Shown here: in pieces, positions 7,809-54,324 of the stretch
Layout of the letters: the number at the start of each line of letters is the position of its first letter
Numbering within the stretch: the stretch's first letter is position 1
DNA from: Candidatus Latescibacterota bacterium
GTDB taxonomy: Bacteria > Latescibacterota > UBA2968
DNA: 64,000 nucleotides
Direction: 5' to 3'
Assembly: GCA_965116885.1 (NCBI GenBank)
Contig: OZ220741.1
Location: 2,272,001-2,336,000, forward strand
Made by a program: the position numbers and the translations under genes
The notes under the pieces: generated by a model
Database searches by the model: none
Seen by the model: the letters and a program-made list of their open reading frames with translations, nothing else
Told to the model about the DNA's origin: nothing

Positions 7809-7817
7809 GTATGTACT

Positions 7818-8831
7818 TTAGCAGTTGTAATATTCTTTGATCTTGCGCTGGAGGGTGCGAAGGCTAATGCCCAGCCTTTTTGCTGCATGTGTGCGGTTGC
7901 CATTGACGCGGTTGAGGGTGTAGTCTATGATGAGTTTTTCAACGGTGTGTAGGGATAGTCCTTCGAGCATGCTCAAATCGATGTTCACAGCATTTGAATC
8001 CTCGCGCTGAGGCGTATAAATATCGGAGGGCAGATCAGTCGGTAATATGGTGTCTCTTTTGACCATAACGGCGAGACGTTCGAGGATATTCTTGAGTTCG
8101 CGCACGTTGCCTGGCCATGAATAGGTCATGAGATACAGGATCGTCTCGGGAGCGAGTTCTTTAGGTGCGAGGTCGTTGTCCTGAGCAAAGTTTTTGAGAA
8201 AATTGGTTGCCAGTGCGGGGATGTCTTCGGGATGTAGCCGCAAAGGGGGCATATCAATGTGAAGGACATTGAGGCGATAGTAGAGATCTTCGCGGAATGA
8301 GCCATTGGCAACGGCCTTTTTGAGGTCGATATTTGTGGCGGCAATAATCCGCACATCGATTTCGATAGGGTCTGTACTGCCCACGCGTACTATCTGTTGG
8401 CTTTCAAGAACACGCAGCCACTTGGCCTGTACGTCAAGGGAGAGGTCGCCGATTTCATCGAGAAATAGAGTGCCGCGATGGGCTGCTTCAAACACACCTT
8501 GCCGGGTTGTGGTCGCGTTGGTAAAAGCCCCTTTAATATGGCCAAAAAGATGACTTTCGGTCAGATCGCGGGGAATCGCAGAACAATTTACGGCAATAAA
8601 AGGGTGGTCGGCTCTGGGGCCAGTTTCGTGGAGTGTTTTTGCAGCCAGTTCTTTGCCTGTACCGCTTTCTCCTGTGATGAGCACAGTTGTCTTAAAAGGA
8701 GCAAGGTATTGAATCTGGTCTCTGATTTTCGCTATGCAGGTCGATGCACCTTGAAGCAAGTGTTCTGTTTTGTCCTTTGCGTTTTCGTTCTGCTCATCTC
8801 TGGGTTCAGTAATCAGTATCTGTGTTTTCAT
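7818..8831 (-). CDS. Sigma54-dependent enhancer-binding protein (AAA+ and Fis HTH) lacking an N-terminal sensor domain
   Basis: Walker A GESGTGKE, GAFTNA loop, Walker B LFLDEIGD, FREDLYYRLNV, WPGNVREL, HTH GNRTHAAKRLGISLRTL. Confidence 0.93.
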   Translation of the reverse strand: MKTQILITEPRDEQNENAKDKTEHLLQGASTCIAKIRDQIQYLAPFKTTVLITGESGTGKELAAKTLHETGPRADHPFIAVNCSAIPRDLTESHLFGHIKGAFTNATTTRQGVFEAAHRGTLFLDEIGDLSLDVQAKWLRVLESQQIVRVGSTDPIEIDVRIIAATNIDLKKAVANGSFREDLYYRLNVLHIDMPPLRLHPEDIPALATNFLKNFAQDNDLAPKELAPETILYLMTYSWPGNVRELKNILERLAVMVKRDTILPTDLPSDIYTPQREDSNAVNIDLSMLEGLSLHTVEKLIIDYTLNRVNGNRTHAAKRLGISLRTLQRKIKEYYNC

Positions 8832-8951
8832 AGACCTCCTCGCGATAGGAGATGGTGTTTGGGTAGCTTTGTTAGTAAATGTTTACTATTGCTTAGACTA
8901 TACTGTACTTGTTTGGTTCCGCACTGAATTGAAAATTTTCCCTGAGCCTTG

Positions 8952-8984
8952 AGGCGCGATCTGTTTTTTGATCGCGCCTTTTTT
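8952..8984 (+). terminator. Terminator-like hairpin with no annotated + strand gene upstream
   Basis: AGGCGCGATC-TGTTTTTT-GATCGCGCCT followed by a T-run. Confidence 0.6.
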
Positions 8985-8993
8985 GTTTTCAGG

Positions 8994-9028
8994 GCGACAC
9001 TATGACGCACTTGGCGACATTCTGACGC
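8994..9028. promoter_or_regulatory. Tandem palindromic boxes, candidate enhancer (UAS) for the adjacent activator
   Basis: GCGACA-CTA-TGACGC (8994-9008) and GCGACA-TTC-TGACGC (9014-9028), 20 bp apart. Confidence 0.65.
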
Positions 9029-9176
9029 GGTTAGCGCGGTTGATTCTTCCCGTGTTTTAAAAAATAAAAATAATTTTTACGCTCAAGACAGTGTATAGAG
9101 TTGGCTTAAAAACCCGTGAGTAATTGCTTAGATATTTTGATAGACTTTTGCTGATTTCATGGGTGATTTGTCTATA

Positions 9177-9189
9177 AATCAATGAGTTA
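9177..9189 (+). promoter_or_regulatory. IHF-binding site
   Basis: AATCAATGAGTTA matches the consensus WATCAANNNNTTR exactly and lies between the UAS and the sigma54 promoter. Confidence 0.6.
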
Positions 9190-9308
9190 GACATATATAA
9201 AAAAGATCTATGTGTATCGAAAAACGCCAGGGCAAAAAGATATTTCACATTTGCGCCCTGGGCGATTGAAAAAAATTAAGTGAATCCCAGTGCTCTTAAA
9301 GCAAGAAC

Positions 9309-9324
9309 TGGCACTCATTTTGCT
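9309..9324 (+). promoter_or_regulatory. Sigma54 (-24/-12) promoter
   Basis: TGGCACTCATTTTGCT with GG-N10-GC spacing; predicted +1 near 9335. Confidence 0.85.
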
Positions 9325-9334
9325 TAAGGTATGA

Positions 9335-9440
9335 CTGATGTTTGATGACATCTTTGCTACCAGGCGAGCACTGCTATGGAGAAGTGCTGACCTTTAGCAA
9401 AATCGTGTGAGGGGGGAGACGCACCCCCCTCACATATTAA
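9335..9440 (+). ncRNA. Candidate structured 5' leader or sRNA
   Basis: Three consecutive hairpins at 9337-9352, 9353-9401 and 9406-9434 (the last an 11-bp perfect stem). Confidence 0.35.
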
Positions 9441-9566
9441 GCATTGAGAACATGAGTAGAGATTGAAAAGTCTATACTGAAAGGAGGGTACGGGGAAATA
9501 GAAAATGCGCTGGAGTAATTGTAGAAGAAGTCGATCGTAAACACATTTCACAAAGGAGCAGTATCC

Positions 9567-12227
9567 ATGTCCAAAAAGCTCTGGTTTTACGCTTCCGGAT
9601 TTTTCGCCGGAGTTGGCATGTGCCTGGCGGGTCTGGTCACACAGGCTCAGGCTCAATGGCCCGGCAATGCCAGAATCTCGATGTCCCGGGGTCAAATCGG
9701 TCACACGCTCCACAATCCGGGCATGACGGGAAAGAAAGATAACACGACAAAGTTGGCACAGTCTTCGTTTTCGTATCCTCAGGGCCGCAATATCAAGGTG
9801 TATTCGGGCGGTTCTGAGCGCGAAGGCTGGAATGCCAAGTCAAATACAGGTGGTGAAGGCTTCTGGGTGCTTTCCAATACGGGTGGCAGCCCCCAAGGTA
9901 CGTATGCAGGTCCGCGTATTACGTCTTCAGACCTGATTGGTCGCCCCCACGATATGACGCAGATGCCCGAGGCTTATGTAGGCGTTGTAGAAAACGGTGG
10001 CTGGGCAATGGCGATTCGCAGAGATAGTGGTGCGGACGCACCCAATATCGCGGGGTCAACAGTTCATGACCGCACGACCAACTGGTGGCCCGAAGCCCAC
10101 GGCATATCCAGTCCAGGTCCTGGAACGAATATCGCTGTTGTGGTCTGGAACTTCCGTTTTGGTCGCTACAACAGCAATGAGCCTTTTGCCAATCGCATTG
10201 GTTCTGGAGAATTGCCACAGTACAGTGCGCCTTCGTGGGTGGAATCTCTGTCTGAAGATGATTTTCCCGAGTTGATCGGTATTCAAGAAGGCGGTTCTTC
10301 AGCCACGGGTCTGGAGTGGACGCGCAAGTGGTTTTCCACGGCGCATCCCGATCACGATGAGTATTTTGTCGTTGACAACGAAGTGGTGAACAATTCGGGT
10401 TCGACGGCTGAAGGTGTGTATATCACCTTTGCCAACCGCTTCCACGCGGGTCAGGCTTCTGGCTGGCGGGGTCCGACCTCGTGGAATCACGCTTTCGATT
10501 GGACGCGCGATGATTATTATCGCAATACATTGGCACCCAATTACCTCAACGGCGTCAGCCGTGGGGATTACACCTCTGCGCTTGGTCGTTCTGCTGGTTT
10601 GCAGCGGGGTGTTGATCTTGCCAATGACGGTCATTTTATGACGTATTACCACGATGGGGACTCCGATCACATTTCCAATTTGATCAATGATCTGGGCGAT
10701 CCCTATCGCTATGCTATCGCCAAAGAGCGCTATACCCGCGAGCAGACGTGGGTGCGCGAAGGGATGATTCAGCACGGTCAGTATTTTGGTCTGGGCACTG
10801 TGGATGCCTTCCCGCCGTTTATGCGCTATGGCGGTGTGGATGATGCGATGTATGTGGCACCCCACGACAATCCAGCCACAGGGCACGATGAGAGCATGCA
10901 ACAGCCCGCTTCGGTGCTTTTCCACGGCTATCGCGGTACGAATGATTTTGACTATCCCTCGCCAGACCGTGCGGGCGATGCTCAGATTTACGACGCGGTT
11001 GCCAATGGCGGCTATACTGCTGAAAATGAAACGCCTGGGCATTATACCACGCTGGTATCTTATGGACCTTACACGCTGGCACCAGGTGAGAAGGCCAAAG
11101 TGGTGGTCGCCTATGTGGCGGGATTGGCAGCAGATCATGCCAAGTATGACGATTACAAGAAGTATGCCATGCCCTTTAACATGGGGTGGATGAACCACTA
11201 CGGTGGCAGGGGATCTGAGCCTACGGAATTGGCAGATCGCCAGCCCGAGATTCCCCTTGGTGAAGATGTGCTGTTCGATCACTTTGAGAATGCGATTCAG
11301 TGGTATAACTGGGGTTATGATCTTCCCAATCAGCCGCCGAATACCAAGGTGGCGTGGGATTCCAACCTTCAGGGTAAGACGCAGATTCGGTGGAGTGTCT
11401 TTGGCGAAGAGGCAATGGATCCAGATTATTCTGGCGCCGGGGCACAGGATTTGCGCGGGTATCGCATCTATCGCTCCAATGTGGAGTATCAGGGCGAGTG
11501 GGAGTATGTGACGGAGTTTTCATTCGAAGATGCGCGTGCGGGCAATTTGCCCACGGGTGTTTCGTATGAACCTTCTCGTACGTGGACAACGGTGAAGAGC
11601 GGTTCCTGGCCAACGGGTATTCCGCTGACGACCAATCAGTATGTCCATCCCGGTGTGCACGGTGGTCTTGATCCCGCTGCTGGTGCTGAGATTCCCGGCA
11701 CATATCTGTTTGACGATCAGGGTACCAATGCTGGTTTTCCCAACTGGTATAGTGTGCGTATGTATGACTCTGGTCACGGTGATTGGAATGGCGTGAGTAG
11801 CGTCGATGTCCTTGAAGCCTCGCAGAGCACCTCTCTGGGTTCTGTGTATGGTTCTCGTACGGGTATTGTTCCCGTTGTTCCTGGTGCAGCGGTGTTTGAT
11901 CGCCTCGAAGAGCAGGTTCGCGTGGTACCCAATCCGTTCAAGGTGGATAGCGATTTGCATACGTATAACCGCCAGCAGAATATGCGGTTTACGAATCTGC
12001 CAGGTCGCTGTCAGATCGACCTTTACGATGTGACGGGTCAGCGGATCTGGACCTTCTACAATCAGGATCCTCTGAAGGGCGAAGTGACGTATATCCAGCT
12101 TGCGGAGAATCGTCCCTCCAACTTTGGCGAGGCGATGTTCCCGGGTATTTACTTCTGGAAAGTCACCTCTCTGATGCCGGGATCAGAAGGCAAAACGCAG
12201 ACCGGCACATTCGTGATCATCAAGTAA
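9567..12227 (+). CDS. Large secreted protein with FN3-like module and T9SS type A-like C-terminal domain
   Basis: Signal peptide ending AQAQ; C-terminus VRVVPNPF..MRFTNLP..IDLYDVTGQRI..PGIYFWKV; SD AAGGAG. Confidence 0.8.
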   Translation: MSKKLWFYASGFFAGVGMCLAGLVTQAQAQWPGNARISMSRGQIGHTLHNPGMTGKKDNTTKLAQSSFSYPQGRNIKVYSGGSEREGWNAKSNTGGEGFWVLSNTGGSPQGTYAGPRITSSDLIGRPHDMTQMPEAYVGVVENGGWAMAIRRDSGADAPNIAGSTVHDRTTNWWPEAHGISSPGPGTNIAVVVWNFRFGRYNSNEPFANRIGSGELPQYSAPSWVESLSEDDFPELIGIQEGGSSATGLEWTRKWFSTAHPDHDEYFVVDNEVVNNSGSTAEGVYITFANRFHAGQASGWRGPTSWNHAFDWTRDDYYRNTLAPNYLNGVSRGDYTSALGRSAGLQRGVDLANDGHFMTYYHDGDSDHISNLINDLGDPYRYAIAKERYTREQTWVREGMIQHGQYFGLGTVDAFPPFMRYGGVDDAMYVAPHDNPATGHDESMQQPASVLFHGYRGTNDFDYPSPDRAGDAQIYDAVANGGYTAENETPGHYTTLVSYGPYTLAPGEKAKVVVAYVAGLAADHAKYDDYKKYAMPFNMGWMNHYGGRGSEPTELADRQPEIPLGEDVLFDHFENAIQWYNWGYDLPNQPPNTKVAWDSNLQGKTQIRWSVFGEEAMDPDYSGAGAQDLRGYRIYRSNVEYQGEWEYVTEFSFEDARAGNLPTGVSYEPSRTWTTVKSGSWPTGIPLTTNQYVHPGVHGGLDPAAGAEIPGTYLFDDQGTNAGFPNWYSVRMYDSGHGDWNGVSSVDVLEASQSTSLGSVYGSRTGIVPVVPGAAVFDRLEEQVRVVPNPFKVDSDLHTYNRQQNMRFTNLPGRCQIDLYDVTGQRIWTFYNQDPLKGEVTYIQLAENRPSNFGEAMFPGIYFWKVTSLMPGSEGKTQTGTFVIIK

Positions 12228-38134: not shown

Positions 38135-40099
38135 TTAGTAATTGTGTACATTGTGCCCGCGTGCGGGGAACCACACCCAATCGATGGCGAATACCAGGGC
38201 TGTGCTCAAAGCCTGGGCGACGATCAATCCGATAAAAAAGGGCTTGCCGCGTTCGTAGAGATCCACGCCGCCTATTCTCATGAGCAGCGATTTGATTGCC
38301 CAGACGATCACAATTGAAAAGAAGACCTTTGTGACGCCGTAGTTGCCCTGTATGGCCAGGCCAATGGGGTGCAGGGGCCAATAGGGGAGCCAATAGCGGG
38401 CCATCGTGAATGCGGCCATAGCTGCCGCGCCGATTAAAGCCCATATTGCCAACCCGCCTTTGCCTCCCATTGGAATTGGGTTGCGGATGGCGTTGATCGC
38501 GTAGTTAAATGCGCCCGGCGCGGCGTTTTTGAGTCCCATGTTGCCCAGGTTGTACGCGCCATAAGCGTATCCCAGGTACAGTGTGTTGGCGACGGAAACC
38601 ATATAGCCCAGGATGAGTGATAGCCCGATCATCAGGGCAATTTGTCTGGGTTTTACCACGCGATCTACGGCTTTGACGGATTGTGTCATGGCGGGCATGA
38701 CATAGCCTTTGCCTGCGCTGTTAAATATCCGCATAAACGATAGGATTGTGACACTTTGCCCGTTGATTGTTGGCGTGCCCCAAATTTGCAACACCGCGTC
38801 AAACGGCTGTACCTGATAGTACACGTACACGAGGCCGAGTTCGGCAACTACGCGCGAGAGTCCCAAAAATGTCAACAGGGCAATTGGCAAAAATGTGAGA
38901 ATGACAAATAGTGCCAGGCCCGCGGCGTATAACCAGGTGGCGACAAATAACAGGGAGATGATCAGGCCGATTACAGCCGTGCGATACGATAGCAATTCGC
39001 CGCTGTCATCGACTTCGCAATCTGGTTGCACGGCTTTTCGCCAGACGTCTGTGAGGTGTGCGCGGCCCATCCACAGGCTCCAGATTGCGAGAAAAATGAG
39101 GGCGCCACCGCTTTGCCAACCCAGGGCGGGACTTTGCCACTGGCGGTCTGCCGCGCCGGGTGTGTACCCAAATTTGTTGAATAAAAGGACCTCAAAGCCC
39201 GATAAAAGCACCCATACCCAAACGCTGAACAGCACGTCCAATCGCGCAAAATAACCAAAGCCAATGGCATAAAAACTGACTCGGCGAATTAAAAAAGGAA
39301 AGTCGGGGTAGAATCGAAACTGCCCGCCTTCAAACGGAATGTGCGGAAAAATCGGTGTGAAGTACGATCCGATGTTCCAGACTTTCAGCAGCATCACGAG
39401 TCCAAATGCGATCCAGAACAGCGGCGACGAAAAAACCTGAGATAGCCTGCCCCCTTGTTGGGTCTCGGTCAATAGGGTGCCCACTTCTACGATGGGATAG
39501 GTCAGGCGTTCGTGATCTACCCACTGTCGGCGCAACATGACGACCACACAAAAGACGGCAAATGCGACTGCGCCGAGGAAGCAGGTCCACCAGAAAAGCG
39601 GGGTTATCCACGCGCCGAGTGCGGGGACATGGCCTGCGGGCGTGCCTTCGTAAAACCAGTTCATCGCACCCGTATCATTTTGCGGTGCCAGCCAGGTTGG
39701 GATATTGTGATGGAGATAAAAATTCCATCCATTTTCTGGCGTGGCAAAATAGTACACCCCGGCCAAGACACCGATGAGGTGCCCGGTAACGCCGTCATAA
39801 GGCACAATCGCGGCGACGAGCCCCATCCCCAGAACCACGCGCAATTCCGGTGGTGTGAGCACGAGAGAGGGCAGGGCACGGCGTGCGATGATGTTCAATA
39901 CGGCCAGCGACAAGAATGGAAAGAGCAGTGCCAGGGGAAAATGGCTGCGGCTGATATTGGAGCCGCTCATGTAGTAGGCCATCCACTCGTCCCACAAGAC
40001 GGTTGCGACGATGATCACGATGGCTACAAAAATGGCTCGGGGCGTTACGGCGCGACCGCTTTGTACCTCTGTTGCCCGATATGTCGATGCTTCTGCCAT
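38135..40099 (-). CDS. Polytopic membrane protein, DUF6785/DUF6784-like (putative transporter)
   Basis: About 16 TM segments; RRQWVDHERLTYP, ELLSYR, WPLHPIG, PFFIGLI motifs. Confidence 0.75.
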   Translation of the reverse strand: MAEASTYRATEVQSGRAVTPRAIFVAIVIIVATVLWDEWMAYYMSGSNISRSHFPLALLFPFLSLAVLNIIARRALPSLVLTPPELRVVLGMGLVAAIVPYDGVTGHLIGVLAGVYYFATPENGWNFYLHHNIPTWLAPQNDTGAMNWFYEGTPAGHVPALGAWITPLFWWTCFLGAVAFAVFCVVVMLRRQWVDHERLTYPIVEVGTLLTETQQGGRLSQVFSSPLFWIAFGLVMLLKVWNIGSYFTPIFPHIPFEGGQFRFYPDFPFLIRRVSFYAIGFGYFARLDVLFSVWVWVLLSGFEVLLFNKFGYTPGAADRQWQSPALGWQSGGALIFLAIWSLWMGRAHLTDVWRKAVQPDCEVDDSGELLSYRTAVIGLIISLLFVATWLYAAGLALFVILTFLPIALLTFLGLSRVVAELGLVYVYYQVQPFDAVLQIWGTPTINGQSVTILSFMRIFNSAGKGYVMPAMTQSVKAVDRVVKPRQIALMIGLSLILGYMVSVANTLYLGYAYGAYNLGNMGLKNAAPGAFNYAINAIRNPIPMGGKGGLAIWALIGAAAMAAFTMARYWLPYWPLHPIGLAIQGNYGVTKVFFSIVIVWAIKSLLMRIGGVDLYERGKPFFIGLIVAQALSTALVFAIDWVWFPARGHNVHNY

Positions 40100-46282: not shown

Positions 46283-47806
46283 CTAAATAGCCTGAAATCG
46301 CGTTTTGACTTCCGATAGCACAATATCTGGAATATCCTCTGTGCGTTCAACTGCATAAACACAGATGTGATCTGCATCAGCAGCCCGCTGACGGAATCGT
46401 TGGGCATCCCGGTTTTGCGCTACGTGAACAGCGGTTACCCGGTTTTCCTTTTGGATCAGAAATTGCATCAGTGCATCGAGGTTGGTAATCTGCATATCTG
46501 TTATGAGAAAAATATCTACATGATTCTTGAGAAGGGGATCCAGATCGGGCAGATGCAATGCTGTTCCACCACCGAAGTAGCGGCACAGTGTGAAGAATAC
46601 GCGCTTGCGATCTCTTGAGAAATCCAGTACTTCTTTTCCTCCTGCCTGTGCATCGCTAAAATTGTAAACGGCCACGCGCTTGCCCCGTCGCAAATACGCA
46701 TCGGCGGCGCATCCGGCACCTAAGACTGCGTGGGATATTTCCCGACACGGATCGACCATACTGCCCGAGGAATCGACAATGACCACACAATCGGGTATGC
46801 CATCGCCATCGCCGTGGGTTTCGCCATCTCGCCAGTTCCACATCTGGGAAATGCCCGGCATGACGCGCCCAAAACTCGTCCATACATCGATGTGCTGAAC
46901 GGGTTTGCCAATTTCCCAGGGCGAGTGAGAATGCGGATGTAATCCGCCCACTTTTTCCAGGGGTATGGTTTGCACGGGCAAGCGAAATGCGGATGCGCGC
47001 GCCATGTAAAACAAGAGGTCGGCATCTGAGGGCGTGCCTTTGCCCCGGCCCATATCGGGCATCATGTTGGCGTCTTGTAGTTCGTCGGCAAAATCGCGCA
47101 CCATTTCTCGAAAGGCATAAAATCCCTGCTCGGCAAATTGCGCGATTCCCTCTGCGAGTTCGCCTGCGGAATACTGCTGGGTATCGCCCATCATGCCACC
47201 CTGTCCATTTCCATCGTCCATTTCTTTTTGGATCAACGGGGCAATTACCTGTGCAAATGACCGAAGGCTATCGCCCCACTGCGAGGCGTCCAGATAGGGT
47301 ATGCGGGCGAGCCGATCTACTTCGCCGCGATCTTCCACGCCCAAATTTTCTCCCCAGAGGCGCTGATACAATGCCCGAATTACGTCTGTCACTTCACTCG
47401 ATTCAACGTGGCGATACACCTCGGGCAATTTCGATTCGCGCTCGCGCACAGCATGGGTATCGACCACCACGTCCGCAAAATATTCGACCACCTGCTTGAC
47501 CAATGTCCCATCCAATAACACGGGTTTGAGCGCGGCATATAGCTTTAAGTGCGTCTCAAAATCCCAGGGACAAATAGTGTGATGCCCCACGCCGTGGTCC
47601 AGCAGTGCAGAGGTGGCGTCTTCTATGTCCATTACTTGCGCGAGGGCGGTCAGCCGATTGGCATTCAATTGGATTACTTTGTCCGTCATTTGAATGCTCG
47701 CGGCTTCGTCGCCTGTTTCGATTACTTCTGGCGTCGGCAATTCGGGAAATAGATGGCGCTTGCGAACAGCGGGCCAAACGCGCTGGATGATGTCGTTGAA
47801 GTTCAT
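46283..47806 (-). CDS. vWA-domain protein with N-terminal zincin-like (DUF2201_N-like) region
   Basis: MIDAS DSSGS, GGGT, LITD; N-terminal DHGVGH..CP and D.VVD helix. Confidence 0.8.
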   Translation of the reverse strand: MNFNDIIQRVWPAVRKRHLFPELPTPEVIETGDEAASIQMTDKVIQLNANRLTALAQVMDIEDATSALLDHGVGHHTICPWDFETHLKLYAALKPVLLDGTLVKQVVEYFADVVVDTHAVRERESKLPEVYRHVESSEVTDVIRALYQRLWGENLGVEDRGEVDRLARIPYLDASQWGDSLRSFAQVIAPLIQKEMDDGNGQGGMMGDTQQYSAGELAEGIAQFAEQGFYAFREMVRDFADELQDANMMPDMGRGKGTPSDADLLFYMARASAFRLPVQTIPLEKVGGLHPHSHSPWEIGKPVQHIDVWTSFGRVMPGISQMWNWRDGETHGDGDGIPDCVVIVDSSGSMVDPCREISHAVLGAGCAADAYLRRGKRVAVYNFSDAQAGGKEVLDFSRDRKRVFFTLCRYFGGGTALHLPDLDPLLKNHVDIFLITDMQITNLDALMQFLIQKENRVTAVHVAQNRDAQRFRQRAADADHICVYAVERTEDIPDIVLSEVKTRFQAI

Positions 47807-47807
47807 G

Positions 47808-47895
47808 GGTTAGTGATTAGTGGTTAAGGGTTAGTCCGCCCAGCCCCCAATCCCTCTATTATTTTATCTGCGTCCATCTGCGTCCATCTGCGGAT
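47808..47895. repeat. Heptamer array (GGTTAGT-like x4) and decamer array (ATCTGCGTCC x2 plus ATCTGCGGAT)
   Basis: Arrays at 47808-47835 and 47866-47895. Confidence 0.75.
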
Positions 47896-48665
47896 GCTTT
47901 TTCCCCTCTGAGCATTTGATCGCGGTGATAAATCGCGCCGCCTTCGGCATTGCCCACACCTCCCAGGCGTCCGCCGATATGGATTTCGCCGGCTTGCATT
48001 TGTTCGCCGATAGATCTGCCAGCGTCTCCCGAGACTTCAATTCGTCCGTCTATCATACCCGCGCCCAGATAGTGTCGGACATTTCCCTCGACCTTCAGGC
48101 AGCCTCCCAGGAGCGAAATGCCCGTGAGGTCGCCCAGGTCGCCCACAATGGTCAGTGTCATGTCTTTGCGAAGGCGATATCCCATGAGGGACAGGCGCAA
48201 GTCGTGACCCGTGAGATCGAGATGAATATCCGACTGAGACGATGCGTTGCAAAAGGCCGATAAGAACAAGCCGAGGGGTTCCATGACAAAAAAAGCCGCG
48301 TCATTGCTTTGCAGGGCGTGCGCGCAAAACGCTTCGATATCGGTTATTTCCCAATCGATTTTTTCCACTATCTGCGATGCCGCAGCATAGGTCGATTCAA
48401 TGGTTTTGCGGTCGGCTTGCCAGAGTCCCTCGCCGACGCCTTCGGCGATCAGGGTGCGGTAAGCTGCTGTCAATCGATCCATTGTCTCGGTGTGAGATGC
48501 GAGAATTTCATCCATGGGCATGACGCGCTTTTTGTGTGCATCTTCGACAAATTCGGCGAAGGGATTGCGCTTTGCGGATAGTAAGCCGTTGACGCGCTCT
48601 GCGTTTTCAGGGTTTAGATCGGATGGTGCAATCCGATCAAATTCTCGAAATGGATTTTGTCGCAT
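47859..48665 (-). CDS. GXGXG beta-helix (FwdC/GltB C-terminal-like) domain protein
   Basis: IVGDLG..G....GG.L.VEG.V...G..M..G.I.V.GDAG..G..M..G.I.I.G repeats; helical N-terminal half. Confidence 0.8.
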   Translation of the reverse strand: MRQNPFREFDRIAPSDLNPENAERVNGLLSAKRNPFAEFVEDAHKKRVMPMDEILASHTETMDRLTAAYRTLIAEGVGEGLWQADRKTIESTYAAASQIVEKIDWEITDIEAFCAHALQSNDAAFFVMEPLGLFLSAFCNASSQSDIHLDLTGHDLRLSLMGYRLRKDMTLTIVGDLGDLTGISLLGGCLKVEGNVRHYLGAGMIDGRIEVSGDAGRSIGEQMQAGEIHIGGRLGGVGNAEGGAIYHRDQMLRGEKASADGRRWTQIK

Positions 48666-48680
48666 GTCTGGCTCTTGGAA

Positions 48681-50003
48681 TTACGAAAATTCTGGACGTG
48701 CAGGCTCTTGTCCCAGGTCGCGCATAATTTCCATGTAAATGGGGTGTTCGCCCTGAATGGGTTTCTCGTCGGCACCACTCAAGATGTGGTTGGCAGTCAT
48801 TAGAGCTGTTTGGATGCGTTCGCTTTGCTCGGTATAGCGCCGAAAGACTTGCCGCACCGCTTCTCGCGCTCTGTGAATGGGCAATACATCATCCCGGTGG
48901 TCTTGCGCTTCTTCCTCATCTCGCCATTGGATGCGGTGAGCACAGGTATATGGCAATATGGTGCGGATATGTTCGATATGCACTTCTTTGTCATGCAGGA
49001 TCCAGGCGAGTGCCTGTGCGTAGCGCCGGATGGAAATGGGCAGGCGATTGGACGGGCATGTCTGTACTTCGTAACACAGGTAGCCCGTGTAATGACAGCC
49101 TTCGCCGCAGACTTCATTTGTGCGTTTTTGTCCGTATTTGCAGCAGAAAGACAATTCGGCCAAAAAGGTTCGAATATAAGCACTGGCATCGGTCTGGAAA
49201 GGCAGTGCGCTCATTTCACTGCGGATCGTTTCGCGCTCGGTACGCCCCAGGGTTGGTACGGATAAACGCTCGGAGATCGCTTTTCCATAATCCTCGCAAA
49301 TGGCTTCTATCTCTGCTTCGGCGTTGGGGTTGACCAGACAGGCCTGGAGTGCCTGTTCGCGTTGGGGATCTCTCAGGAGATGTGCAGGAGAGGATTCGGT
49401 GCCGATCATCCAGGACAAATTCGCGCCCGGATACTTGGATTCCACCATTACGTCAAAGCGGTCCAAAAGGGGTACAACGATGGTATTTGTGCCGCGGTCC
49501 TGATAGTTGGCCGTTGCGAACAAACAGTATTCTTCGTTGATTTGCATCTGGTTCAAGTAGGACCAGTTGCCGCGATCCACGCCATTGAGGATCAAGCTCT
49601 GCTTTGTTTCCGGCAGGCGGTTGATTTCATCTACGACTTTGACGGGTAAGACGGAAAATGCCGACCACACCACATCTTCTTCGCCGCGGTTGAGTGCGCC
49701 GAGGTTTGGGCGCCCGACGATTTTTTCTTCGGTCTGTTCGGGATGGCCACTTACTTCGGCTTCCCACACAGCCCCCAATGGCATGCGATATAGTAGCGCG
49801 CCGATATACTCTGCCGATGTTGTTTTGCCCAGGCCGGGTTCGCCTACGATCAGAATTTTGCCACCTAATAATCCCGTTAGCGCGCTAAGTAACAAAGCGG
49901 CATTGTGTTTTTGTCCTTCGATCTCCAGGTCTGCCCGATTAAAATACAACCGATCCTGGATAAAGGTCAAGATATCGTGTACTGTTGTTTGTAAATCGGC
50001 CAT
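48681..50003 (-). CDS. MoxR-like AAA+ ATPase
   Basis: Walker A GEPGLGKT, Walker B VVDEINRL, ATAN, LLDRF. Confidence 0.88.
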   Translation of the reverse strand: MADLQTTVHDILTFIQDRLYFNRADLEIEGQKHNAALLLSALTGLLGGKILIVGEPGLGKTTSAEYIGALLYRMPLGAVWEAEVSGHPEQTEEKIVGRPNLGALNRGEEDVVWSAFSVLPVKVVDEINRLPETKQSLILNGVDRGNWSYLNQMQINEEYCLFATANYQDRGTNTIVVPLLDRFDVMVESKYPGANLSWMIGTESSPAHLLRDPQREQALQACLVNPNAEAEIEAICEDYGKAISERLSVPTLGRTERETIRSEMSALPFQTDASAYIRTFLAELSFCCKYGQKRTNEVCGEGCHYTGYLCYEVQTCPSNRLPISIRRYAQALAWILHDKEVHIEHIRTILPYTCAHRIQWRDEEEAQDHRDDVLPIHRAREAVRQVFRRYTEQSERIQTALMTANHILSGADEKPIQGEHPIYMEIMRDLGQEPARPEFS

Positions 50004-50012
50004 GTCTTGACC

Positions 50013-52079: not shown

Positions 52080-53186
52080 TCACTGAGCCAGCCAGGCACT
52101 GAAGCGTTCGTTCATTTCGTCGATGTGATCGCTCCACCATTCCCAGGAATTTCGCAGGGCGCGCTTAGAATTTTCTGGGCTGTTGGGCATGTGGGGATTC
52201 ATTTCCACGCCTTTCTCGGCGTGTGTCGATATCAGTGCCTCCGCAGAGTGGCGCGTGGGGCTGTAGGCGATGTAACGGCCGACGCCAGCTATGGCTTTCG
52301 CCGTTGCGGCGAAATTGAGAAATTTTTTTGCAGCTTCGAGGTTCCGCGTTCCCGCGACAATGACAAGCCCGCCTGTATCCAGTATTTGCCCGTCCCATAC
52401 GATGACAAAGGGCTGATCTTCCAATACCTGTGCATTGAAGATGCGTCCGTTGTAGGCTGTGGACATCACGACCTCGCCATCGGCGAGCATCTGCGGTGGC
52501 TGTGCCCCGGCTTCCCACCATACGATGTGGTCTTTGATGGTGTCCAACTTGCGGAAAGCGCGGTCCACGCCTTCGGGCGTATTGAGGGTGGGATATACTT
52601 TGTTGAGTGGTACGCCATCGGCGATCAGTGCAAATTCCAGGTTTGCCAGAGGTGTGCGGCGCATGCCTCTGCGTCCGGGGAATTTTTCGAGGTCAAAGAA
52701 ATCGGCCATTGTGGTGGGTTTTTCTCCCGGGATATTCTCTTCGTTGTACGCATATACGGTGGAGTAAAATATCGTTGCCGGACCGCAATCCGTCATCGTG
52801 CCGAGCGGAAAATCCTGTGCCGCAGGCGTTCCATCGGCGCCCGCTGGCAGCGAGTTGACCGGGATGGGTTCGAGCAGGCCCTCGTCACAGCCTCGCACCA
52901 TGTCGGGAATTTCCATATCGACAACATCCCAATGAACATTGCCCGATTCGACCTGTGCGCGGATTTGTGCCAGCCCGCCGTTGTAGTCTTCGAGGTTGAT
53001 TTTAATGCCTGTTTCAGCGGTGAATGCCTCGTGGTAGCCTTTGACGCATGCGCGCGCATAAGATCCGCCCCAGGAGACCACGGTCAGCGGTCTATCGTTG
53101 GCAATTGCACGATCTGAGGTCCATATCGCCAGTGCGGTCAGTACAGTTAGATAAAATGCCGTTTTACGCGTGTTTTTCCACTTCAA
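52080..53186 (-). CDS. ABC substrate-binding protein, PotD/PotF-like (copy 1, SPI signal)
   Basis: VSWGGSY, WDVVD, AYNGR; TTG start with AGGAGGA SD. Confidence 0.9.
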   Translation of the reverse strand: MKWKNTRKTAFYLTVLTALAIWTSDRAIANDRPLTVVSWGGSYARACVKGYHEAFTAETGIKINLEDYNGGLAQIRAQVESGNVHWDVVDMEIPDMVRGCDEGLLEPIPVNSLPAGADGTPAAQDFPLGTMTDCGPATIFYSTVYAYNEENIPGEKPTTMADFFDLEKFPGRRGMRRTPLANLEFALIADGVPLNKVYPTLNTPEGVDRAFRKLDTIKDHIVWWEAGAQPPQMLADGEVVMSTAYNGRIFNAQVLEDQPFVIVWDGQILDTGGLVIVAGTRNLEAAKKFLNFAATAKAIAGVGRYIAYSPTRHSAEALISTHAEKGVEMNPHMPNSPENSKRALRNSWEWWSDHIDEMNERFSAWLAQ

Positions 53187-53223: not shown

Positions 53224-54324
53224 TTACTGCGCCAGCCAGGTGCTGAAGCGTTCGTTCATTTCATCGATATGAACGCTCCACCATTCCCAGGCATTTCGCA
53301 GGGCGCGCTTAGAATTTTGCGGGCTGTTGGGCATGTGGGGTTTCATATCAATGTCCTTTTCGGCATGTTTCGATATCAGTGCCTCCGCAGAGTGGCGCGT
53401 GGGGCTGTAGGCAATGTGGCTACCGACACCGGCCATGGCTTTCGCTGTTGAGGCGAAATTGAGAAATTTCTTTGCGGCTTCGAGGTTCGGCGTTCCCGCG
53501 ACAATGGCGAGACCAGATAGATCCAGTATTTGTCCGTCCCACACGATGACAAAGGGCTGATTTTCCAATACCTGTGCATTGAAGATGCGCCCGTTGTAAG
53601 CCGTGGTCATGACCACCTCGCCATCGGCGAGCATCTGTGGCGGCTGTGCTCCAGCTTCCCACCATACGATGTGGTCTTTGATGGTGTCTAACTTGCGAAA
53701 GGCGCGATCTACGCCTTCGGGCGTATCGAGGGTGGCATATATCTTGTTGAGCGGTACGCCGTCTGCGATTAGTGCGAATTCCAGGTTCTCCTGGGGTGAG
53801 CGGCGCATGCCCCGTCTTCCGGGGAATTTTTCGAGGTCAAAGAAGTCGGCCATTGTGGTGGGTTTTTCTCCCGGGATATTTTCTTTGTTGTACGCGTATA
53901 TGGTGGAGTAAAACAGTGTTGCTACGCCACAGTCTGTCGATGTCCCGAACAGGAAATCTTCTTCCGCAGGCGTTCCATCGGCTCCCGGTGGCAGCGAGTC
54001 GATCTCAACGTGTTCGAGCAGGCCCTCATCGCAGCCTTGCGCCCATGTCGGGAATCTCAAATCGACAACATCCCAATGCACATTGCCCGCCTGAATCTGT
54101 GCGCGAATCTGCGCCAGCCCGCCGTTGTAGTCTTCGAGGTTGATTTTAATGCCTGTTTCAGCGGTAAATGCCTCGTGGTAGCCTTTGACGCAGGCGCGTG
54201 CATAAGATCCGCCCCAGGAGACCACAGTCAGCGGTCGGTCTTCCAAAAAATTACAGCCCAGAGTCAACATCGCCAGCGCGGTTATTACCGCGGTGCATAA
54301 CGTCTTTCTCTGTTTGGTATTCAT
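53224..54324 (-). CDS. ABC substrate-binding protein, PotD/PotF-like (copy 2, lipoprotein)
   Basis: LTLG-C lipobox; about 85% identical to copy 1 by manual count. Confidence 0.9.
   Translation of the reverse strand: MNTKQRKTLCTAVITALAMLTLGCNFLEDRPLTVVSWGGSYARACVKGYHEAFTAETGIKINLEDYNGGLAQIRAQIQAGNVHWDVVDLRFPTWAQGCDEGLLEHVEIDSLPPGADGTPAEEDFLFGTSTDCGVATLFYSTIYAYNKENIPGEKPTTMADFFDLEKFPGRRGMRRSPQENLEFALIADGVPLNKIYATLDTPEGVDRAFRKLDTIKDHIVWWEAGAQPPQMLADGEVVMTTAYNGRIFNAQVLENQPFVIVWDGQILDLSGLAIVAGTPNLEAAKKFLNFASTAKAMAGVGSHIAYSPTRHSAEALISKHAEKDIDMKPHMPNSPQNSKRALRNAWEWWSVHIDEMNERFSTWLAQ

Follow-up and report, generated by a model that had tools for sequence, protein, structure and literature searches.

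What does a bacterium do with three adjacent genes that encode a MoxR-class AAA+ ATPase, a stand-alone β-helix protein and a protein with a von Willebrand factor A (vWA) domain? The question is raised by a stretch of 64,000 nucleotides (the window; contig OZ220741.1, positions 2,272,001 to 2,336,000) from a Candidatus Latescibacterota bacterium whose genome is a single contig of 5.56 Mb. Few AAA+ machines are as poorly understood as MoxR-vWA pairs, and the solved cases (NorQD, CbbQO and CobST) each exposed a specific maturation step. To our knowledge, a β-helix fold has never been reported as a strictly co-inherited third subunit of such motors. In the window the three genes, here called the trio, are co-oriented open reading frames (ORFs) on the minus strand, separated by intergenic gaps of 15 and 52 nucleotides:

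48681..50003, minus strand: MoxR-class AAA+ ATPase of 440 amino acids (P0001; ORF list, Pfam AAA_5 and AAA_lid_2)
47859..48665, minus strand: tagged β-helix protein, an ORF of 268 amino acids (P0002; ORF list, family profile, model)
46283..47806, minus strand: adaptor protein of 507 amino acids with a vWA domain and its MIDAS, the metal ion-dependent adhesion site (P0003; ORF list, alignment, model)

An original prediction, made from the sequence, had placed co-oriented genes of 440, 268 and 507 amino acids between an ATP-binding cassette (ABC) transporter operon and an FKBP gene and had proposed that they form an undescribed ternary module. The ORF list agreed exactly with its coordinates and lengths, and a scan of the neighbours agreed with the position. 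We consider it probable that the trio works on its own as an ATP-driven machine for protein remodelling, of the MoxR-AAA+/vWA type but with an obligatory third subunit, and that its role is housekeeping rather than phage defence. This reading is built on the domain identities, the strict linkage and order of the genes, purifying selection and a lack of defence hallmarks. No published description of the trio was found in the literature searched, which excluded subscription journals. The description of the module as new also agrees with the lack of a match to any characterised system, a blank PADLOC result and the available part of an account of MoxR-vWA conflict systems, in which GXGXG goes unmentioned (PMC7159879).

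Linkage was assessed in two sets of loci. The genome set was picked by the β-helix protein in species genomes and comprises 29 loci, with record titles naming Latescibacterota or metagenome-assembled genomes (MAGs); the metagenome set was picked by the vWA protein alone, and 80 loci were kept of 399 confirmed stretches. In the genome set, the vWA gene was directly downstream of the β-helix gene at 28/28 loci, the 29th being cut by a contig end, and the AAA+ gene was directly upstream at 23 of the 26 loci with room for it. The three exceptions (L014, L015 and L017) have an intact AAA+ gene (E ~1e-258) elsewhere in the same genome, beside an ABC permease gene; in these (and L111-L113) another part of the chromosome carries the β-helix, vWA and FKBP genes, with every part intact. 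A rearrangement split the operon between the AAA+ and β-helix genes at these loci, and no part was lost. In the metagenome set, the β-helix gene was upstream of the vWA gene at 53/53 loci with room and the AAA+ gene was upstream at 38/38, always in the order AAA+, β-helix, vWA. These data show that the three genes are one conserved module, with the GXGXG gene linked to the AAA-vWA pair wherever this could be checked, as had been predicted. Median identity to the window proteins in the metagenome set was 57% for the AAA+ protein, 46% for the vWA protein and 37% for the β-helix protein, and the set spans at least four lineages with quite different flanks:

L077: FtsJ, DUF4416, YicC, Gmk and HD genes upstream; methyltransferase and PilZ genes downstream
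L042: FtsJ, DUF4416, YicC, Gmk and HD genes upstream; HNH, HIT, RimP and NusA genes downstream
L087: pilin genes upstream; Lon and ArsA genes downstream
L083: NT5C, YacG, acyl-CoA dehydrogenase and ETF genes
L096: TRAP transporter and QueG-like genes
L065: UvrA gene

In the flanks scanned, no gene recurred across lineages and no defence gene was found.

The first of the three proteins was identified by Pfam, with both AAA_5 (26.9 bits, cut-off 22) and AAA_lid_2 (27.1 bits, cut-off 22.7) above their thresholds and Mg_chelatase just at its own. Walker A, Walker B and a ChlI/MoxR-type lid are all present. The family profile had no match among solved structures at E <= 0.01, and the nearest Atlas clusters carry AAA_5, AAA_lid_2 and AAA_3 and are unnamed or generic. 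Three conserved features were located:

49821..49844, minus strand: Walker A, GEPGLGKT, residues 54-61, invariant in alignment A3
49617..49637, minus strand: Walker B, VVDEINR, residues 123-129, with D125 and E126 invariant in A3
49056..49145, minus strand: Cys/His-rich insert in the lid region (C287, C288, C299, C303, H304, C316), invariant among relatives

The lid insert is probably a metal or iron-sulfur site.

The middle protein scored 17.6 bits against Pfam GXGXG, under the cut-off of 32.5. A profile of its family matched solved FwdC chains at E 1.3e-18, and in its model (mean predicted local distance difference test score, pLDDT, 83) residues ~105-253 were aligned by VIA-align to FwdC with Z 12.7 (root mean square deviation 2.7 over 132 residues), with further matches to FhcC (Z 12.6) and GltB (Z 10.7). 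Foldseek on the same model returned no match at E <= 0.001, and the clear FwdC and FhcC matches came from VIA-align only. Despite the sub-cut-off Pfam score, the middle protein is a GXGXG right-handed β-helix like that of FwdC, and it matched no other family. The helix is preceded by a disordered, tagged N-terminus and a helical region. The tag occurs twice:

48639..48656, minus strand: first tag, NPFxEF, residues 4-9, an extra copy
48549..48566, minus strand: second tag, NPFxxF, residues 34-39, located in the wide alignment

Two copies are present in 25 of 31 close relatives, as in the window protein. In the wide alignment N34, P35, F36 and F39 of the second tag were invariant (22/22 sequences, in every lineage aligned), and in several lineages the protein starts with M-[KR]-N-P-F. 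Near the ORF starts of this genome, NPFxxF was found in the β-helix protein and in 8 scattered matches, which is about chance level, and the scan suggested no further clients that are tagged N-terminally. There are many GXGXG proteins that stand alone (4,913 representatives at E <= 0.001, 360 at E <= 1e-30); those fetched from outside the trio family have a different N-terminus and no NPFxxF tag. Among them is a sister family (P0188, P0201, P0225, P0237 and P0268) of 250-600 amino acids, some members having duplicated units, which has an N-terminal RF-x-RY...EEK motif, a C-terminal GGKIYHKGKLIVDK end and no tag.

A separate feature lies at the 3' end of the β-helix ORF:

47866..47892, minus strand: dispersed decamer repeat GCAGATGGAC, ~2.6 units

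The repeat has 35 sites in the genome versus 0 for a reversed control. It encodes the final ~14 residues of the ORF, which are unconserved, and it is no part of the machine. Contigs from RNA libraries accumulate and break at the repeat and the adjoining intergenic stretch (47807-47897), and one such contig, from a related strain, lacks 91 nucleotides at the repeat site and has 5 other letters instead.

A single record, P0207, joins two of the proteins in one chain: residues 232-430 of the AAA+ protein (its C-terminal half; 49% identity) and a β-helix protein (33% identity). It retains the Cys/His motif of the lid insert, and its tag reads NLFEDF in place of NPFxxF. A search for longer or fused β-helix forms returned only an unrelated glutamate-synthase-like protein, a blank that is weak evidence.

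For the third protein, a Pfam scan of the window sequence gave no match and the family profile found nothing at E <= 1 among solved structures, while VWA_2 matched 11 of 12 relatives. Residues 336-507 of the model fold as a vWA domain, by Foldseek (E 5e-5) and by VIA (Z up to 14.1), with the solved NorD VWA (Z 13.1) and BchD (Z 11.7) among the matches. The protein is laid out as follows:

residues 1-250: N-terminal helical domain (model and alignment)
47561..47599, minus strand: DHGVGHHTICPWD motif, residues 70-82, a zincin-like H-x3-H that is missing the catalytic Glu
46802..47056, minus strand: linker, residues 251-335, densely conserved and modelled as disordered
46760..46774, minus strand: MIDAS DSSGS, residues 345-349, invariant in alignment A4

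D345, S347, S349, T415 and D437 were invariant in A4 and make up a complete MIDAS (DxSxS...T...D), T415 and D437 being placed in it by alignment position. D[ST]SGSM was found in 150/150 relatives, and the relatives listed (365-547 amino acids) have the same motifs and end with the vWA domain. The linker has pLDDT <50 over residues 252-335, yet it is densely conserved, and it may be a partner-binding segment.

The original prediction had called this protein metallopeptidase-like, a label drawn solely from the DHGVGHHTICPWD motif. Within that motif D70, H71, H75, C79, P80, W81 and D82 (D-H-x3-H-x3-C-P-W-D) were invariant in A4. H-[G/A]-x-x-H was present in 148 of 150 relatives (HGxxH in 120, HAxxH in 28), the region being missing in the other two, and HExxH with its catalytic Glu was found in 0/150. 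No peptidase family matched the window protein in Pfam, and none matched 12 relatives at E <= 1. A zincin metallopeptidase with a catalytic Glu was rejected on the motif, that residue being absent from every relative that has the region. One Atlas cluster carries Peptidase_M48 on 18% of its members; this and the Myxococcota/M48 and archaeal Atlas rows are leads, not evidence. If the N-terminal domain is derived from a peptidase, it would be inactive here, and its H-x3-H site is probably a metal-binding or peptide-binding site, the tag being the candidate peptide. The AAA, GXGXG and vWA identities originally proposed stand, by Pfam for the first, by profile and fold for the second and by fold and MIDAS for the third; the peptidase label is not supported. 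A complex prediction for the vWA and β-helix proteins with Mg gave 0.25 (mark 0.32) and so no verdict on binding in either direction.

A search across the phylum recovered the vWA protein from 37 of 168 genomes (18 of 52 when those of high quality are counted). By family the counts were 29/30 (f1), 4/22 (f2), 3/3 (f6) and 0/76 (f4). There was one vWA match per genome in 35/37 carriers, genome matches not being copy numbers; the other two are G042, in which the gene is split by an insertion, and G069, a fragmented assembly. In the first of these (L022, ~7813-11406) the first ~114 and last ~400 codons of the vWA gene are separated by ~2 kb that holds two ORFs on the opposite strand, of 372 and 250 amino acids, and the insert is probably a mobile element. 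The three f6 genomes, of 1.9-2.5 Mb, retained the trio with the β-helix and vWA genes adjacent. Relatives of the genome have record titles that name Latescibacterota, and names attached to other relatives are those of Thermodesulfobacteriota, Tectomicrobia, "Deltaproteobacteria" and "Pseudomonadota" MAGs. Of 7,999 candidates scored, at least 945 belong to the vWA family at E <= 0.001. Compared with four close relatives, the ratio of nonsynonymous to synonymous substitution rates (dN/dS) was 0.06-0.08 for the AAA+ gene, 0.07-0.125 for the vWA gene and 0.18-0.27 for the β-helix gene. All three genes are under purifying selection, and are more than chance ORFs.

The stretch is contained in runs labelled sponge metagenome. 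Contigs from four RNA libraries of three studies covered most of all three genes at 90-99% likeness; two of them (X17 record 22 and X19 record 29) cross the AAA+/β-helix junction and one (X19 record 30) crosses the permease/AAA+ junction. These contigs have holes, do not prove transcription or a single transcript, and do not show strand, ends or level.

How might such a machine work? By analogy with NorQ/NorD, the AAA+ protein would form the motor ring and the 507-amino-acid protein would be its NorD/CbbO-like partner, in which a linker connects the N-terminal domain to a C-terminal vWA domain whose MIDAS is complete. The β-helix protein would be held by its NPFxxF tag, most likely on the H-x3-H domain or the MIDAS of the vWA protein, and ATP hydrolysis would cause it to be remodelled, loaded or released. 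It may be the dedicated client of the machine or its substrate adaptor. The ring, the contacts, what the tag does and which way remodelling runs are inferred, and these parts of the proposal are put forward as a model of action.

A more specific form of the proposal, which we hold as tentative, is that the true substrate is the tagged β-helix protein itself and that the trio is an ancient self-contained machine across several bacterial phyla. The AAA+/vWA pair would then recognise NPFxxF and use ATP to assemble, disassemble or turn over a β-helix scaffold or polymer, with the H-x3-H domain as a peptidase-derived tag receptor. If true, this would add a new kind of regulated system, serving either cell structure or quality control.

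Several points weigh against a protein-remodelling machine of this kind. Physical interaction among the three proteins is a prediction. The AAA+ protein scored 19.9 bits against AAA_3, the model of MoxR proper, under the cut-off of 27, and its nearest solved relative by sequence is 2r44 at E 0.065, as for a distant member of the class. In the fold searches of the vWA protein, matches to the vWA domain took up the lists and residues 1-250 were barely probed; those of the β-helix protein were likewise filled by its other domain, and no fold was matched for residues 1-100. P0207 is one record and may reflect either a genuine fusion or the loss of a stop codon. Both sets of loci include many close kin, and their counts are not of independent events. 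In the lineages scanned, no target is indicated by any conserved neighbour. The term housekeeping is itself an inference because it draws on neighbour context and conservation only. Finally, the patchy distribution indicates that the trio is not essential for every cell and that horizontal spread is possible.

The rival that survives best is that the trio inserts a metal into, or helps to mature, an unlinked metalloenzyme, acting like NorQ/NorD, CoxD/E or the class I chelatases (CobS/CobT/CobN and ChlI/ChlD/ChlH). In that role the β-helix protein would dock the target as an adaptor, and the metal would be held by the H-x3-H...C...D site or by the Cys-rich lid insert. The logic of a motor plus a vWA protein is common to known metal insertases, both large proteins have conserved candidate metal ligands, and enzyme complexes use the same β-helix as a structural subunit, as in FwdC, FhcC and glutamate synthase. 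However, metal binding by the conserved His and Cys residues is a candidate property read from the alignments, the lineages scanned have no conserved gene next to the trio that would qualify as a target, and no large ChlH/CobN-like gene is adjacent. Retention in genomes of 1.9-2.5 Mb also suits a general role better than a specialised enzyme. We regard this rival as doubtful.

The original prediction had left defence and protein remodelling both open, and the data now favour remodelling and weaken defence. In an anti-phage or conflict system of the MoxR-vWA ternary type, the β-helix protein would be a sensor or effector. MoxR-vWA pairs are the core of four ternary conflict systems described in the available part of PMC7159879, and carriers are patchily distributed in the phylum. 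Here the third component is a GXGXG helix, which is none of the four defining kinds in that part of the account, and the vWA domain ends the protein, with the same architecture in all relatives seen. A single match in 35 of 37 carriers and a low dN/dS also argue against a conflict system, as do neighbours that are housekeeping genes. No copy of the trio was found in 72,556 plasmids, in 50,697 phage records or in IMG/VR viral contigs. The proposed check for defence systems and defence islands gave no PADLOC system match and no defence gene in the scanned flanks; in PADLOC-DB 2.0 a 24-residue P-loop match of the AAA+ protein to IetA (E 0.0042) was seen, and nothing for the other two proteins. 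Defence is unlikely because the architecture is fixed, conservation is strong, most genomes have one match, the neighbours are housekeeping genes and mobile copies were not found; we rate it as very improbable.

Still less probable is that glutamate synthase or a formylmethanofuran-dehydrogenase-like enzyme has the β-helix protein as a detached subunit, with the AAA+/vWA pair as assembler of that enzyme. Homology to FwdC, FhcC and the C-terminal domain of GltB, together with the existence of a large stand-alone GXGXG family, would suit this explanation. However, the genome has a complete GltB, an ORF of 1528 amino acids with its own GXGXG domain (293 bits), and has no further GXGXG match beyond this protein and that of the trio. 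This sole canonical GltB is ~530 kb from the trio, and partners of FwdC and glutamate synthase are missing from the window, as the original prediction had noted. No Fwd or Fhc genes were found beside the trio at any locus scanned, and the stand-alone relatives fetched do not carry its tag.

That the trio is a local accessory of its neighbours, helping either the ABC transporter encoded upstream or the FKBP prolyl isomerase encoded downstream, is the least credible explanation: the last permease stop codon lies only 9 nucleotides before the AAA+ start, an RNA-library contig spans that junction and an FKBP gene follows the vWA gene at 26 of the 28 genome loci that have the vWA gene, but the more distant loci of the phylum (L019-L029) have no ABC genes beside the trio, FKBP is confined among metagenome loci to the Latescibacterota-like L030-L036, no ABC or FKBP gene lies in the scanned metagenome flanks, the three genomes broken between the AAA+ and β-helix genes keep all parts intact, and RNA-library contigs of three runs show a different upstream neighbour in related strains.

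The neighbouring genes in the window were also described. The ABC operon lies upstream on the same strand and encodes an ATPase with a TOBE domain, two SBP_bac_8 binding proteins and two permeases. Downstream of the vWA gene come genes for an FKBP isomerase that carries FKBP_N, for a pseudouridine synthase of the RluA type and for sugar-nucleotide enzymes. Two regions further from the trio were also recorded:

52080-53186 and 53224-54324, minus strand: two tandem SBP_bac_8 genes of near-equal length (368 and 366 amino acids) in the ABC operon
38135-40099, minus strand: protein of 654 amino acids with DUF6785 (E 2e-108) and DUF6784, an uncharacterised membrane-type family

In related genomes the number of SBP_bac_8 genes at this operon varies from one to three, with variable spacing. 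Genes for a class III aminotransferase and a type I phosphodiesterase/sulfatase-like protein neighbour the DUF6785 gene, and the region is possibly a phosphonate or amino-sugar cluster. RNA-library contigs of three runs (X15, X16 and X17) depart from the window sequence at 50005 with an identical loose end; this shared departure indicates that in related strains another gene stands upstream of the AAA+ gene. Promoter and terminator scans gave counts at shuffle level and were discarded as evidence.

The module is small (~1200 residues), is predicted to be soluble and offers Walker B, the MIDAS and a six-residue tag as handles. Identities of 37-57% across phyla, together with retention in 2-Mb genomes, point to an unrecognised, broadly used cellular process.

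How does the trio compare with known systems? Like the ternary conflict systems, it combines a MoxR-vWA pair with a conserved third gene. Those systems are defined, in the available part of their description, by a third part that is VMAP, iSTAND, FtsH or a beta-propeller, and by highly variable effector domains C-terminal to the vWA domain and differing paralogous systems per genome (PMC7159879). Unlike them, as far as that part describes them, the trio has a vWA protein with no effector domains, no paralogous systems per genome and strong conservation. In FwdC, FhcC and the C-terminal domain of GltB, the β-helix is homologous to that of the trio. In contrast to these, the trio protein is stand-alone, shorter and equipped with a unique tagged N-terminal region, and it is encoded with an AAA+/vWA pair rather than with FwdABD or glutamate-synthase domains.

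The class I chelatases (CobS/CobT/CobN and ChlI/ChlD/ChlH), as far as the sources available describe them, share with the trio a three-part build, in which an AAA+ motor is accompanied by a vWA subunit and by a third one to hold the molecule being worked on. The likeness extends to weak ChlI/BchI N-terminal matches of the AAA+ protein and to the BchD match of the vWA domain. The third part differs, being a β-helix protein of 25-30 kDa here and a porphyrin-binding subunit of ~140 kDa in the chelatases, and no tetrapyrrole genes lie near the trio in the window. A class I chelatase was considered and rejected, since BchI-ChlI scored 20.8 bits against an NCBIfam cut-off of 466.95 and no large-subunit gene was found in the flanks.

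The closest comparison is with NorQ/NorD, and with CbbQ/CbbO, CoxD/CoxE and RavA/ViaA, in which an AAA_5/AAA_lid_2 ATPase gene likewise shares an operon with its partner gene. In the available parts of the published accounts, NorD consists of an N-terminal domain, a linker and a vWA domain (PMC9976466), and in the NorQD mechanism a vWA finger enters the pore of the ATPase ring, the NorD linker is remodelled and the MIDAS binds the target (PMC13036017; PMC9976466). The trio partner is similar to NorD as described there, with an N-terminal domain, a disordered linker and a C-terminal vWA domain with DxSxS-T-D, and the NorD VWA is among the best structural matches of its vWA domain. Unlike NorQ/NorD, the trio has no adjacent target-enzyme gene in the flanks scanned, its ATPase is very distant in sequence and has a Cys/His-rich lid insert, its N-terminal domain has the H-[G/A]-x-x-H...CPWD motif, and a strictly linked β-helix gene stands between the ATPase and vWA genes. 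The trio thus most resembles the MoxR/vWA chaperones of the NorQ/NorD type, and its three-part logic also recalls the class I chelatases. The pairing of AAA+ and vWA proteins is itself known, and the trio is an uncharacterised three-subunit version of these machines.

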